From positions 39,866,001-39,930,000 of the forward strand of contig OZ024742.1 in assembly GCA_964016885.1 (NCBI GenBank): a stretch of 64,000 bases of DNA. The letters run 5' to 3'. Of the stretch, positions 7,651-54,136 are shown in pieces. The notes below the pieces were generated by a model. It was not told where the DNA came from. It ran no database searches and saw only the letters and a list, made by a program, of their open reading frames with translations. Numbering within the stretch: position 1 is the first letter of the stretch; each line of letters starts with the position of its first letter. Both the position numbers and the translations under genes were made by a program. Source of the DNA: Eledone cirrhosa. Lineage: Eukaryota.

Positions 7651-7874
7651 ATATTAATTCAAAATATTAACAAAATAGATATTCTTGTGATCAAGTATAT
7701 TTTATTATACACAATTCAGAGTTAACGATCTACTGTGTCAGGGTGTGTCATGCATCATCTTATTTTATCTGATGAGGACGTACTGTTGAACTTAACTCAG
7801 TACCTCTGAAATATGTATAATAAAATATATTTGATCACAAGAATATCTATTTTGTTAATATTTTGAATTAATAT
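7651..7874. mobile_element. Penelope-derived foldback: ~70-bp inverted arms 7651-7721 / 7804-7874
   Basis: Arms are near-perfect reverse complements; a hammerhead spans the spacer and right arm. Confidence 0.75.
7761..7827 (+). ncRNA. Minimal type-I hammerhead ribozyme
   Basis: Stem I TATTTTAT/ATAAAATA, CTGATGA, stem II including GTACTG/CAGTAC, GAAA, short stem III T-ATGT-A, AUA cleavage triplet. Confidence 0.8.
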
Positions 7875-7888
7875 TAATAACTCTGGAA

Positions 7889-8072
7889 GGGCGGTGGATT
7901 GGCAGTATCAGTAGAGGGTCGGACGCCATATTTTCCATCATAGTTACGTCCCTTTACGATCTGAGTTCAAATCCCGCCGAGGTTAACTTTTCCTTTCATC
8001 CTACGGGGTCGATAAAATAAAGTACCAGTAATGCACTGGGTAATTGCTGGCCTTGTGCCTAAAGTAGAAACA
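7889..8072 (+). mobile_element. OK-like SINE, full length, 16-bp TSD
   Basis: tRNA-like head, B box GAGTTCAAATCC, tail GGCCTTGTGCCTAAAGTAGAAACA; TSD ATTAATAACTCTGGAA at 7873-7888 and 8073-8088. Confidence 0.92.
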
Positions 8073-8589
8073 ATTAATAACTCTGGAAAACCATTACAGT
8101 TGAGTGCTTCCAATCTATTGTAAAACTCATTCTTTGATTTATTCATTGAACCTTGTTTAACTTTTTTATATATATATATATATATAGATAGATACTCACA
8201 CACACACACACTCACTCACACACACACACACATATACATATATATATATATATATATATATATATAATCTTCGTTTTAATCTTTCATTTATTTTTATGTT
8301 TATTATTTTACATCGACTGTCTAACATCAACTTGAAGACTTTCGGCCTTTTTCTTTAAAGTGGTGCTGATAATGGGGTTGGAAGGCAGATTATTTTCTAG
8401 AAAAATCTCGAGTATTCGTCATTGATTGAACGAAATGTCTTCCAATAGTGACATGGTCGATGAATAACTTGCACCCAAGCAGAACACCGTCAGAACGATA
8501 CACAAACACGAAGACAACTCTTCACATCCTTTGAAAATAATAAGATTTTTAAGCCGACAGAGAGCGAGACATCTTTGTTGCTGTTCTTT

Positions 8590-10120
8590 TAATGTTGTTG
8601 CTGTTGTTGCTGTTGTGGTCGTTGTTGTTGTTGATGGTGGTTGTAATGATGGTGGTGGTGGTGGTGGTGGCGGTGGTGATGGTAATGATGATGGTGTTGT
8701 TATATTGTTGTTGTGGTTGTTGTTGTTGATGGTGGTGGTAATGATGGTGGTGGTGATGGTAATGATGATGGTGTTGTTATATTGTTGTTGTTGTGGTTGT
8801 TGTTGTTGTTGTTGTTGGTGGTGGTGGTTGGTGGTGTTGTTATATTGTTGTTGTTGTTGGTGGTGGTGGTGGTGGTGGTGGTAATGATGATGGTGTTGTT
8901 ATATTGTTGTTGTTGCTGTTGTTGTTGTTGTTGTTGTTGTTGTTGTTGTTGTTGTTGTTGTTGTTGTTGTTGGTGGTGGTGGTGGTGGTGGTAATGATGA
9001 TGGTGTTGTTATATTGTTGTTGTTGTTGTGGTTGTTGTTGTTGTTGTTGTTGGTGGTGATGGTGGTGGTGGTGGTGGTGGTGGTAATGATGGTGATGGTG
9101 TTGTTATATTGTTGTTGTTGTTGTTGTGGTTGTTGTTGGTGGTGGTGGTGGTGGTGGTGGTGGTAATGATGGTGATGGTGTTGTTATATTGTTGTTGTTG
9201 TTGTTGTGGTTGTTGTGGTTGTTGTTGTTGTTGTTGTTGTTGTTGGTGGTGGTGGTGGTGGTGGTGGTGGTGGTGGTGGTGGCGGTAATGATGGTGATGG
9301 TGTTGTTATATTATTGTTGTTGTTGGTGTGGTTGTTGATGGTATTGGTGGTGGTGGTGGTGTTGTTATGTTGTTGTGGTTGTGGTTGATAGTGGTGGTGG
9401 TGATGATGATGTTGGTGGTAATGATGTTATATTGTTGTTGTTGTGGTTGATGATGGTGGTGGTATCGGCGGTGGTGGTGGTGTCGGCGGGGGTGCTGTCG
9501 GTGGTGTTGGTGGGGTGGTGCTGTCGGTGGTGGTGGTGGTGGTGTCGGCGGTGGTGGTGATGGTGCTGGTGCTGGTGGTGGTGGTGGCGGTGGTGTTGGT
9601 GGTGGGGGTGTTGGCGGTGGTGGTGTTGGCGGTGGTGGTGTTGCTGGTGGTGATATGTGGTGGTGGTGGTGGTGTTGGTGGTGGTGGTTGTGTTGGTGGT
9701 GTCTGCGGTGGTGGTGTAGGTGATGGTGTTGGTGGTATTGGTGGCAGTGGTGTTGGTGGTGTCGGTGGTGGTGTTGGTGGTGGTGTTGTTGTTGGTGGTG
9801 GTGGCGGTGGTGGTGGTGGTGTTGGTGGTGGTGATATGTGGTGGTGCGGGTGATGGTGGTGGCGGTGTTGTTGTTGTTGTTGGTGGTGGTGTTGGTGATG
9901 CTGGTGTTGGTAGCGGTGGAGTTGGTGGTGTTGGTGTTGGTGGTGGTGGTGTTGGTGGCGGTGGTGTTGGTGGTGTTGGTGGTGGTGGCGGTGGAGTTGG
10001 CGGTGCTGGTGTTGGTGGCGGTGGTGTTGGTGGCGGTGGTGTTGGTGGTGGTGGCGGTGGAGTTGGCGGTGCTGGTGTTGGTGGCGGTGGTGTTGGTGGC
10101 GGTAGTAGTGTCGGCGGTTG
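8590..10120. repeat. Compound (GTT)n/(GGT)n array with a higher-order unit
   Basis: GGTAATGATGATGGTGTTGTTATATT recurs between variable GTT and GGT runs. Confidence 0.95.
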
Positions 10121-11469
10121 TAACAAATTAATTTGCGAAAGTGCGACAAAGACGAAAGGAATGACAATATCCAGACAAAATGATGAAGTGATAGGTTTAG
10201 TTGATGTGACGTTCACCAAAGGCTGATATCGTTCAAATTTGGTTGGCAATACCAATTTAGAGTTGTGGTTTGACTGAATCGGTAGAGCATCAAGCAAGAT
10301 GTCATGCAAGTATTTATTTATATCCCTCTGTGTTCTCTATGTTCAAATCCTGCTGGAATCAAGTTCGCCTTTTAATTTTCCCAAGGTTGATAAAATAAGA
10401 GATAAGCCATTTCACTCATGATGGATTCGTAGGAAGGTTGTCTCGACACATGGTCTTGAGCATTTAAAACCCGGTGGAGCCCCTCACTTGCCAGGTTGGA
10501 ACACAGGTAATTTCTTCCAAAGAGAGAGGTCGAGTAGAATCGACTGATACTTTATTTATCAACTCCTGAAAGGATGAAAAGAAAAGTTAACGTTTGTGAG
10601 ATATGAATTCAGAGCACAGTAATCCAGAACAAATGCAGAGCTATTTTTAATATGATGTCATATAGGGTGTTGGGCTCACAATCGCAAAGTCATAGGTTCG
10701 ATTTATGAACTAAGCAGTGCGATATGTCTTTCAGCAAGTTTATTTCACGTTGCTCCAATCAATTCAGCTGAAACACACACACACACACACACACACACAC
10801 ACACACACACACACACACACACACACACACACACACACACACACACACTCTCTCTCTCTCTCTCTCTATCTCTCTTACACACGGACATACACACACCCAC
10901 AACTACCGGCATCAGCTGCGATTTAACCCTACAAATGTTTAATCAACTATTCCTATCTCGCAGAATCCAGCCTTTGTGGCCAGCATTAGAAATTATGAAT
11001 GTGAAAATGGCCGAAGGACAAAATATGTAGAACACCGAGCAAAATAGCTTCCTGTACATAGTTACGTTTCTTTTTTACCTTATCAGTTTAAATAGAGTCC
11101 ACATTCTCTTATAAGGCTTGCGCACAGCCGCGCCTATGGTAAATGATATTTGTTCAAGATGCCACGCTACGGGATAGAACCCGGAACCTAATGAGTACGA
11201 AATGAACTCCATAACCACAAAGCAATGCCTTTGCTTATAAAATAAAATTGACTGTCGTAAACACTTCTGCGACTTATTCAATGCTGAAAATCGATGTTAC
11301 AGATTTCGTAGATGAAAGATCAAGAGACCAGAGGTTATTATTTTAAGAACATTTTCGGTAAAGCATAGGACACTGAGTTCAAATCCCGCCGAGGTTATCT
11401 TTGCCTTTCATCCTTACGGGATCGATAAAATAAAGCATCCTAACAAATTGCTAAACATTATTATTTTAA

Positions 11470-53094: not shown

Positions 53095-53137
53095 GTCAAA
53101 GTTCTTTCGTCACACATTCTGTGACCTCTTCAGTGAC
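53095..53137 (-). ncRNA. Minimal hammerhead, left pLTR
   Basis: GTCA-CTGAAGA-G-GTCACA-GAATG-TGTGAC-GAAA-GAAC-TT-TGAC. Confidence 0.7.
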
Positions 53138-53331
53138 TGGGGATTCTTTTCTTTGTTTTTTGTGCCTCTCCTTTGTTCTATCCTACGCCATCTTGTTTTT
53201 GTGTGTGTGTTGTGTGCTTAGTTTGCGCATGTGTTACATCCGGGTGTCTGTGTGTGTTTATATTCGTTTATTTATTTGTTTATTTACATGTTACTGGTTG
53301 GTTGTTTGTTCTATGTGCGTGTGTGTTTTCA

Positions 53332-53895
53332 TGGTATGATAGCAATAAATACCAGAGTGTAATGTTCATCGATACAACCCCTAGAGGTGAATTAGCTTAC
53401 AAATTTAGAAGGGCCCTAGATAAACATAAACTCAATATTAAGATAGTAGAAAGACCAGGTACCTCCATAAAAACACTTATTAACAAGACATACCCTTTTC
53501 AAAGACCTCCCTGTATAGATAAGAAATGTATAATCTGTAAATTAAGCCCCCATATTAACTGTAAAACTAGAAATGTAGTATATAGCATAAGATGTACTGA
53601 AGGACAATGTAGAGATAAAAATATAGTGTACATAGGTGAGACAGCTCATAGTATAGGAGAACGGATAAATGAACACTGGCGAGACCTTCAAGATAGTAAA
53701 GAATCATCTGTACTCTACCAACATGCTAAAATAGAACATAAGGGTAAATTAGAGAACATAGAAATAAAAATAGAATCTACACACAGAAAAGACGCAATGT
53801 TTAGACAAATCACAGAGGCAATAAACATAAATGAATTACAACCAAAATTAAATAGAAAACATGAATGGAACAGCAACATCACAACTTACAATTAA
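53332..53895 (+). CDS. Penelope-like C-terminus: Cys-rich linker plus GIY-YIG endonuclease
   Basis: CIDKKCIICK, CKTRNVVYSIRC, YIGET...RINEH, HAKIEH, RQITEA, PKLNRKHEW. The first ~53 aa of the listed ORF are inverted-pLTR sequence. Confidence 0.88.
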   Translation, partial: WYDSNKYQSVMFIDTTPRGELAYKFRRALDKHKLNIKIVERPGTSIKTLINKTYPFQRPPCIDKKCIICKLSPHINCKTRNVVYSIRCTEGQCRDKNIVYIGETAHSIGERINEHWRDLQDSKESSVLYQHAKIEHKGKLENIEIKIESTHRKDAMFRQITEAININELQPKLNRKHEWNSNITTYN

Positions 53896-54093
53896 GGACA
53901 AAATGAAAACACACACACACATAGAACAACCAACCAGTAACATGTAAATAAACAAATAAATAAACGAATATAAACACACACAGACACTCGGATGTAACAC
54001 ATGCGCAAACTAAGCACACAACACACACACAAAAACAAGATGGCGTAGGACAGAACAAAGGAGAGTAACAAAAAACAAAGAAAATAATCCCCA

Positions 54094-54136
54094 GTCACTG
54101 AAGAGGTCACAGAATGTGTGACGAAAGAATTTTGAC
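54094..54136 (+). ncRNA. Minimal hammerhead, right pLTR
   Basis: Same motif as the left arm with GAAT in stem III. Confidence 0.65.

Follow-up and report, generated by a model that had tools for sequence, protein, structure and literature searches.

We analyzed a 64,000-nucleotide (nt) stretch of the Eledone cirrhosa genome (hereafter, the window; contig positions 39866001-39930000 of a 2,995,841,428-base animal assembly) for hammerhead ribozymes of the type carried by Penelope-like elements (PLEs). The window is rich in microsatellites and in reverse transcriptase (RT) frames of the long interspersed nuclear element (LINE) type, with repeat features that appear to resemble those of an octopus genome. 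A preliminary description had noted about ten loci with PLE-type hammerhead motifs in it, six of them complete or nearly complete. The descriptor used here required the type-I order with a stem I of at least 4 bp, CUGANGA, a stem II of at least 3 bp (in which a first-position mismatch or an extra 5' base was allowed), GAAA, a short stem III, and UH. Exactly six matches were found in the window, with C3 at 7769+, 15286+, 15841-, 50841-, 53133-, and 54098+ (full spans are given below); these are the six motifs of the preliminary description, and the ends of stem I agree. Dinucleotide shuffles of the window gave means of 0.02 matches (60 global shuffles) and 0.03 matches (60 local shuffles in 300-nt blocks), with a maximum of 1 in each set, so that the similar density in shuffled sequence that had been named as a ground for doubt was not observed. 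A strict descriptor (no mismatch or bulge in stem II) detected the motif at 7769 alone, missing five of the six.

With damaged copies and inverted partners included, 15 hammerhead cores were counted in 11 insertions, which were labeled as families by core position (A, 7769; B, 15286; C, 15841; D, 50841; E, 23559/23301; F, 24191; G, 24344; H, 27899/27921; I, 31469/31514; J, 2802; K, 53133/54098). The earlier figure of about ten loci holds in this form, except that the motifs at 53133- and 54098+ lie in two inverted pseudo-long terminal repeats (pLTRs) of a single insertion. The hammerhead-bearing features of the window are as follows.

2699-2828 (+): family J fragment, old (~75% identity to relatives); core at 2802, cut off 4 nt past GAAA by a 20-bp satellite (2828-6558).
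7651-7724 (-): family A inverted 5' arm, with the 3' half of the hammerhead only; ends at a TA/CA tract.
7722-8170 (+): 3'-terminal piece of a coding PLE resembling the Hydra clade (family A), with a hammerhead at 7761-7827 that would cut after 7819; interrupted from ~7886 by a repeat resembling a short interspersed nuclear element, with target duplication; ends at (TA)n.
15171-15460 (+): family B retrozyme, 0.92 of a 315-nt monomer; the hammerhead (15282-15323) has U.U at the foot of stem II and is predicted to cut after 15319; (TA)n adjoins the 3' end.
15520-16188 (-): family C retrozyme, 1.52 units of a ~441-nt monomer; hammerhead 15847-15805 with stem III CTAG, predicted cut after 15811.
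23147-23302 (-): inverted arm of family E, in which the inversion junction at 23301 interrupts the 5' core.
23300-23826 (+): family E retrozyme, 1.19 units of a 457-nt monomer; core at 23559 with G12 changed to A; the insertion has (TA)n on both sides.
24037-24230 (-): 3'-terminal piece of a coding PLE (family F), whose U3-A8 hammerhead at 24191 is intact and would cut after 24165; (TA)n adjoins the 3' end.
24308-24462 (+): family G 3' end of a coding PLE; intact core at 24344, with G10.1 changed to A in this copy and a 2-bp stem I; (TA)n on both sides.
27566-28040: two copies of family H in opposite orientation (27901-27566 minus, 27904-28040 plus), whose hammerheads (27899- and 27921+) have degraded stems, with GAAA missing from the plus copy; stem III TACGTA.
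31216-31648: family I inverted pair (31506-31216 minus, 31494-31648 plus); the core is whole at 31469- and damaged at 31514+, and stem II is long.
50696-51040 (-): family D retrozyme, 0.63 of a ~543-nt monomer; hammerhead 50846-50765 with a 7-bp stem II (C.A at its base) and stem III CTAATTAG, predicted cut after 50770.
52949-53332 (-): inverted pLTR of family K with a hammerhead at 53137-53095 that would cut after 53099; terminates at (TA)n.
53323-53895 (+): C-terminal portion of the PLE protein encoded by family K, comprising a CX4CXXC linker and a GIY-YIG endonuclease with CCHH.
53896-54289 (+): 3' pLTR of family K with a hammerhead at 54094-54136 that would cut after 54132; terminates at (TA)n.

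Each of the 11 families proved to be a repeat family (40 candidates scored per search; 15 to 30 loci taken for each family). Their representatives shared only chance matches of 14 to 19 nt, in agreement with the earlier view that unrelated families have only the core in common. No Rfam match at gathering score was obtained in the 11 family loci, a result that bears only on membership of Rfam models, and a scan of the window returned no hammerhead among the matches listed (150 of 314), just microsatellite-driven, microRNA-like ones; the expectation that standard annotation would overlook these elements was borne out by the family loci. The hammerheads here are of a known kind, i.e., pLTR hammerheads of PLEs and hammerheads of retrozymes lacking long terminal repeats (non-LTR retrozymes), and do not form a new class. 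Their anatomy corresponds to that given in PMC4209133, PMC8557442, PMC7229834, and PMC11167929.

The type-I core (CUGANGA...GAAA...NUH, or its U3-A8 variant) was found in the type-I order. It is intact in seven window copies (i.e., the six motifs and the family F copy at 24191) and in the cores of I-, G, and H-, and it is broken in E+, E-, I+, H+, and J. Alignments of copies showed that the hammerhead is complete in families E, G, H, I, and J and that their copies in the window have been mutated or truncated. The motifs previously reported as damaged all belong to hammerhead families, but the one noted at 24162 is intact: we counted it (24191-) as undamaged because every family F copy shown has UUGAAAA, i.e., the U3-A8 variant described in PMC4209133. 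The motif that had been reported as split at 2797 is called truncated here (2802+) because its 3' half is absent after the satellite. This satellite (2828-6558; 186 copies of 20 bp, 85% matches) starts inside the family J hammerhead.

Stem III did not fold in monomers, and its duplexes ranged from -1.7 to -11.3 kcal/mol in nine of the ten families scored. The palindromic stem III noted earlier was found to be self-complementary in these nine families and not in family K. Among 49 motifs from an unbiased genome sample (see below), 41 had a palindromic or absent stem III (i.e., the dimer type), and 15 distinct stem III sequences were present. These observations support the assignment to PLE-type hammerheads with a dimer-type stem III; self-cutting of the window motifs is predicted from their sequences.

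Compensatory changes in stems I to III were counted for families A, B, C, and D, and the covariation that the preliminary description had called for was present in D, in the A superfamily, and between B and a relative, and was weak in C. For family D, ten sequences gathered by similarity alone (including the window copy) had 95.9% of cells paired and 10 double changes, with one stem II pair occurring in four forms; none of 500 shuffles reached the observed level, and slid controls dropped to 26 to 54%. Between family B and its relative in 316-nt tandem units (69% identity), the C3-G8 pair is replaced by U3-A8, and stems I to III are rewritten yet still paired.

Four of the 11 families (K, G, F, and A) have their hammerhead in a 3' pLTR, with 5' truncation and tandem or inverted insertions, and lie downstream of PLE coding sequence. 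In the single family K insertion at 52949-54289, an inverted pLTR is followed by the terminal part of a frame with CX4CXXC and GIY-YIG and then by a second pLTR. The GIY-YIG match of this frame (PF01541) scored 21.7 bits, against a cut-off of 22.6. The end of the frame stood beside the pLTR in 29 of 30 loci, and RT was encoded in a long copy (L211); longer proteins related to the K endonuclease were sought and not found, which is weak evidence. In family G, RT and endonuclease were located ~1.7 kb upstream of the hammerhead in four of five long copies (chosen from 15). Long copies of family F carried an RT thumb, CX4CXXC, and GIY-YIG ~1.1 kb upstream, and RT or endonuclease similarity was present in 7 of 15 upstream-anchored loci. 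In family A, endonuclease, a 1.9-kb untranslated region (UTR), and hammerhead were contiguous (88.9% identity over 2857 nt between L202 and L233); RT with DKT and RWQ lay upstream (RWQ in L349), and RT motifs were found in 7 of 12 loci. The family A endonuclease has a CxCX5C linker and CxxC + CxH and is without CCHH. Given that the Pfam scores were below the cut-off, the assignment of the four families to endonuclease-bearing PLEs rests on motifs and mutual similarity. On this basis, the window copies of K, G, F, and A are assigned to 5'-truncated 3' ends of PLEs encoding RT and a GIY-YIG endonuclease. Family A fits the Hydra clade by its motifs (i.e., an RWK-like motif, DKT, CxCX5C, CxxC + CxH, no CCHH, and a (TA)n target). 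With a 1.9-kb 3' UTR in addition to the open reading frame, the element is not short (<3 kb), a trait that is descriptive and not diagnostic.

Families B, C, D, and E consist of consecutive head-to-tail noncoding units of 315, ~441, ~543, and 457 nt, respectively, with one type-I hammerhead per unit and a GC content of 0.35 to 0.38, as in non-LTR retrozymes. An array of family D spans two overlapping 10-kb stretches with 18 units each; arrays of 15 units (E) and 17 units (C) were also found, and the relative of B is arranged in 316-nt units. The D array (L209 and L210; positions 88375000-88393900 of the same contig) exceeds 18 kb and shows a higher-order pattern of unit lengths. In family E, the units of five arrays on two chromosomes differ at only 0 to 2 of 457 bases, a uniformity to which assembly polishing could have added, and the units of both chromosomes end at an identical (TA)n junction. 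No BLASTN similarity was detected between the units of B, C, D, and E and the four coding families compared (K, G, F, and A). We assign B, C, D, and E to the non-LTR retrozymes and consider it likely that PLE proteins copy them in trans. The preliminary description of a mostly noncoding population accordingly applies to the DNA of the window, where coding sequence is kept only in K, and at the family level to 4 of the 11 families, which are noncoding tandem monomers; another 4 are 3' ends of PLEs with RT and GIY-YIG.

At one further locus (L217, 475-5394), an array related to B (316-nt units, 69% identity, U3-A8 core) directly adjoins an array of C units; different retrozyme families insert side by side. 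In 18 of 19 C copies and 8 of 13 J copies (background, 1.3%), the hammerhead is preceded at a distance of ~88 to 97 nt by the octamer ATGCAAAT, which in the window lies at ~15929 (-) for C and ~2705 (+) for J. We take this octamer to be an element of POU-factor or small nuclear RNA promoters, and it is a candidate internal promoter. Contigs of four sequencing runs (X1, X2, X3, and X6) were also compared with the E unit, which is present in runs of three organisms. In two runs, the joint returned after 457 nt, and in one run the unit was on a single self-closing contig of 487 bases (457 plus overlap). These joints are uninformative about circles because tandem DNA and a circle yield the same joint.

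The remaining families H, I, and J are older (72 to 88% identity). No shared open reading frame or tandem unit was found for them, including none in 15 upstream-anchored I loci. Endonuclease frames near copies of I, J, and D were considered and rejected as being separate insertions or not common to the copies; for this reason, H, I, and J were placed in neither the coding nor the retrozyme group. Many further hammerhead families were seen outside the window (L030, in a ~310-nt tandem; L243, L244, L255, L262, L278, L285, L287, L296, and L353).

The insertions share a characteristic structure. As the preliminary description had noted, nearly all of them abut microsatellites: 10 of the 11 end in (TA)n, (CA)n, or (TG)n, with J as the exception. 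This bias extends to the genome, where (TA)5 was located within 350 nt downstream of 45 of the 49 unbiased motifs and upstream of 22, compared with 23% of random places. The copies have one or two family-specific, AT-rich 3' ends, 70 to 290 nt downstream of the predicted cut, which are joined to (TA)n. Counted from C3, these ends lie at 167 to 175 or 202 to 206 in B (18 of 20 copies), at 141 to 146 or 255 to 267 in D (20 of 20), and mostly at 236 to 264 or 312 to 317 in C (18 of 20); in G, (TA)n begins at +119 in 14 of 15 copies. The 5' ends are scattered and often inverted. Loci longer than one unit were frequent (B, 12 of 20; C, 16 of 20; D, 11 of 20), where a few loci represent two views of one insertion; the window copies comprise 0.92 (B), 1.52 (C), 0.63 (D), and 1.19 (E) units.

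Taking these observations together, we are confident that the window records insertions of hammerhead-bearing PLE ends and of retrozyme units, the latter probably copied in trans by PLE proteins and all of them probably inserted by reverse transcription primed at nicked (TA)n. In such a process, the PLE endonuclease would nick (TA)n, and RT would start internally, on an uncut tandem or a circular RNA, and then run through the hammerhead. Tandem transcripts could give rise to dimeric ribozymes by pairing of the palindromic stem III; these ribozymes would excise monomers, which would perhaps be circularized, and solo copies such as those of the window would be mostly inactive. The covariation between subfamilies, including the change from C3-G8 to U3-A8, would then reflect selection on the RNA during transposition, with no host function. 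Alternatively, the TA tail may be made during insertion instead of deriving from a preexisting (TA)n target. An internal start of reverse transcription has been shown in vitro for a PLE of the anole (PMC11167929).

We next relate the window to the genome as a whole. Application of the same descriptor to 79 evenly spaced 10-kb stretches (789,800 bases) yielded the 49 motifs mentioned above (i.e., 62 per Mb, or 3.97 per 64 kb), corresponding to an estimated 186,000 in the genome (bootstrap 95% range, 121,000 to 258,000). The first 59 stretches (590 kb) contained 37 motifs, compared with 0 to 1 in shuffles. The window is ordinary in this respect (6 versus 3.97 per 64 kb; P for 6 or more, 0.26), and local enrichment of hammerheads was rejected on the grounds that its density equals the genome average. 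Exact patterns, which fix the core and flanks and not the pairing of every stem II, matched 69,726 (A type), 24,161 (C), 12,494 (F), 10,031 (D), and 6,797 (K) places in the whole genome, or 123,209 in total, and reversed-pattern controls for these five families gave 0 matches. This count covers A, C, F, D, and K; the B pattern was too narrow (41 matches), and E and G were left out. The sample counts of A, C, F, D, and K (13, 6, 5, 2, and 5) are in rough agreement with those expected from the exact patterns (18.4, 6.4, 3.3, 2.6, and 1.8). Published counts, obtained with other descriptors, are 126,247 motifs in the axolotl (PMC7229834), whose genome comprises 28 Gb, ~5,000 in mussel, and ~9,000 in Xenopus (PMC4209133). 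The load from five families here (123,209) is thus close to that of the axolotl, whose genome is ~10 times larger, with the reservation that the descriptors differ.

Several points weigh against an active role of the ribozymes in the process proposed here. The double changes in the A superfamily (11 of 18 pairs, 19 rows) come from rows chosen by a pairing descriptor, which favors pairing, and covariation in family C is weak (a double change in 1 of 11 pairs; 4 of 500 shuffles). Stem III of family K is not self-complementary (duplex, +1.4 kcal/mol), and stem I of family G has only 2 bp. NUU cleavage sites, a kind that cuts poorly, are present in families B, D, H, and K. The G10.1-C11.1 pair of the published consensus was found in just 9 of the 49 unbiased motifs; by family, it is present in K, F, G, and I and absent from A, B, C, D, E, H, and J. 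A U.U at this position also occurs in an axolotl motif that is active (PMC7229834). Of nine predicted Xenopus dimers, one was cleaved (bioRxiv 10.64898/2026.07.22.740005), and the cutting of minimal PLE hammerheads is weak even in dimeric form (PMC4209133). In the anole PLE, cutting by the hammerhead required protein, and insertion did not depend on the hammerhead (PMC11167929). In addition, the units of B, C, D, and E have no sequence similarity to the four coding families that would single out their helper.

One alternative is that the motifs are passengers, i.e., pLTR-derived pieces spread by PLE RT from uncut linear transcripts, with no present role for cutting or circles and with arrays that are satellites grown by unequal crossover. 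The higher-order pattern of unit lengths in the D array is as expected from DNA-level amplification, and copies exceeding one unit require just an uncut tandem template. Moreover, hammerhead mutants had no effect on insertion in vitro (PMC11167929), and Naiad PLEs thrive without canonical hammerheads (PMC8557442). The compensatory changes between subfamilies, including those at the core pair C3-G8/U3-A8, count against this alternative because neutral passengers would not keep them, and the E units on two chromosomes, with differences at 1 to 2 of 457 bases and a shared (TA)n junction, point to repeated RNA-templated insertion. We regard passengers as the strongest rival but an unlikely one, at roughly one chance in four.

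Much less probable is a host role, as suggested in the preliminary description, in which a local cluster of ribozymes cuts a host pre-mRNA transcribed across the window. In its favor, seven of the window motifs have an undamaged sequence. A gene may also have been missed, as introns are likely to be long, and a sub-threshold 7tm_1 match (E, 0.0012; L235:3213-3443, minus strand), possibly a receptor exon, lies ~6.6 kb before the window. This reading has to contend with a motif density equal to the genome average and with motifs that lie on both strands and derive from young mobile families. Most of them are solo dimer-type or damaged motifs; a solo motif is unable to form stem III on its own, and the window does not contain two copies of any family on the same strand. 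Furthermore, no host exon over the Pfam cut-off was found in the 150 frames scanned out of 164 that were unmasked (all 79 of the window and 71 of 85 in a total of 60 kb of flanks). Chance matches in AT-rich, palindrome-rich DNA can be dismissed: a loose descriptor with one core mismatch does give 1.35 to 1.83 matches per shuffle and the U3-A8 descriptor 1 to 5 chance matches per 590 kb, but the contrasts of 6 with 0.02 to 0.03 in the window, of 37 with 0 to 1 in 590 kb, and of 6,797 to 69,726 matches per family with none for reversed patterns, together with the covariation, refute this reading.

The rest of the window includes two long LINE-type RT frames with zf-RVT (PF00078 over the cut-off) at 32406-35279 (-) and 39589-42258 (+). 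Fragments of the second kind of frame occur at 42.4 to 49.2 kb and 59.6 to 60.1 kb in an inverted arrangement. A near-perfect inverted repeat of 291 bp with a 29-nt spacer lies at 60989-61599, and a sub-threshold DDE_3 match at 51772-51939 (-) is probably a DNA-transposon remnant.

Within its genome, the window does not stand out. We advance tentatively, at slightly less than even odds, a broader view in which this genome has the densest animal hammerhead load described to date (at least 41 per Mb from five families and ~62 per Mb in the sample, versus ~4 per Mb in the axolotl). It would combine Hydra- and Neptune-type PLEs with at least four unrelated and recently active retrozyme families, abundant ribozyme-made circular RNAs, noncanonical closing pairs (U.U, C.A, and A-U), and (TA)n entry via fixed internal starts. 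If this is true, trans-mobilization of animal retrozymes by PLE proteins would become directly testable, with young identical E units beside candidate helpers. Retrozyme movement and the role of the hammerhead in PLEs are open questions in PMC7229834, PMC8557442, and PMC11167929, and in this genome very young retrozyme families whose insertion ends have been mapped occur beside coding PLEs. Its tens of thousands of natural variants resemble a mutational scan of the ribozyme, and in an octopus genome a density of ~1 motif per 16 kb would put many of them inside introns. No prior report for this lineage or load was found in the literature searched, where supplements of earlier surveys might list the host; the main text of a recent repeat annotation of octopus is silent on ribozymes (PMC13282606). 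Host and load are apparently unreported, and what appears to be new is the quantitative load and the occurrence side by side of young retrozymes, candidate helpers, and mappable start sites.

Finally, we compared these elements with known systems. Like the PLE pLTR hammerheads of PMC4209133, those described here form many heterogeneous families per genome, mostly as solo motifs of truncated PLEs, with opposite-strand pairs 100 to 700 bp apart, an extra base after A9, a palindromic stem III, and the U3-A8 variant. They differ in number (~2,000 to 9,000 per genome there versus at least 123,209 here), in that the G10.1-C11.1 pair, conserved there, is present here in only 9 of the 49 unbiased motifs, and in the very long stem II of several families (D, E, H, and I). 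Family A resembles the Hydra clade (PMC8557442) in its motifs, hammerhead, and (TA)n insertion and is placed there by motifs only; its element exceeds 4 kb (1.9-kb 3' UTR) versus the published "<3 kb", and 69,726 A-type hammerheads were counted here, whereas that report gives few families outside cnidarians. Families K and F, with CX4CXXC and a GIY-YIG endonuclease with CCHH, resemble Neptune-type PLEs (CX2-5CxxC linker and CCHH endonuclease; PMC8557442), as they do in microsatellite insertion and tandem or inverted structure. This placement is likewise by motifs alone, and in the G copy read, a frameshift splits the linker.

The retrozymes share with those of other animals (PMC7229834; bioRxiv 10.64898/2026.07.22.740005) noncoding head-to-tail units with one type-I hammerhead each, a GC content of <45%, a range from dimers to long arrays plus dispersed monomers, and coexisting PLEs. 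The U.U at the base of stem II in family B recalls the axolotl HHR_Amex2. The units of 441 to 545 nt are longer than the 170 to 400 nt of PMC7229834 and lie inside the 51- to 972-bp range of the bioRxiv study. At least four unrelated families occur together here. The bioRxiv study derives retrozymes from the pLTR of a coding PLE, whereas those described here have no match to K, G, F, or A. With respect to insertion, the closest parallel is PAc, the Poseidon PLE of Anolis (PMC11167929), which likewise has two internal RT starts downstream of the hammerhead and an AT-rich target. The two 3' ends of B, 27 nt apart, are comparable to the 30- to 40-bp tail of PAc, whereas those of C and D are ~60 and ~115 nt apart, respectively. 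The PAc start is nonhomologous to its target, whereas the starts here are short TA-rich words able to pair with a (TA)n primer.

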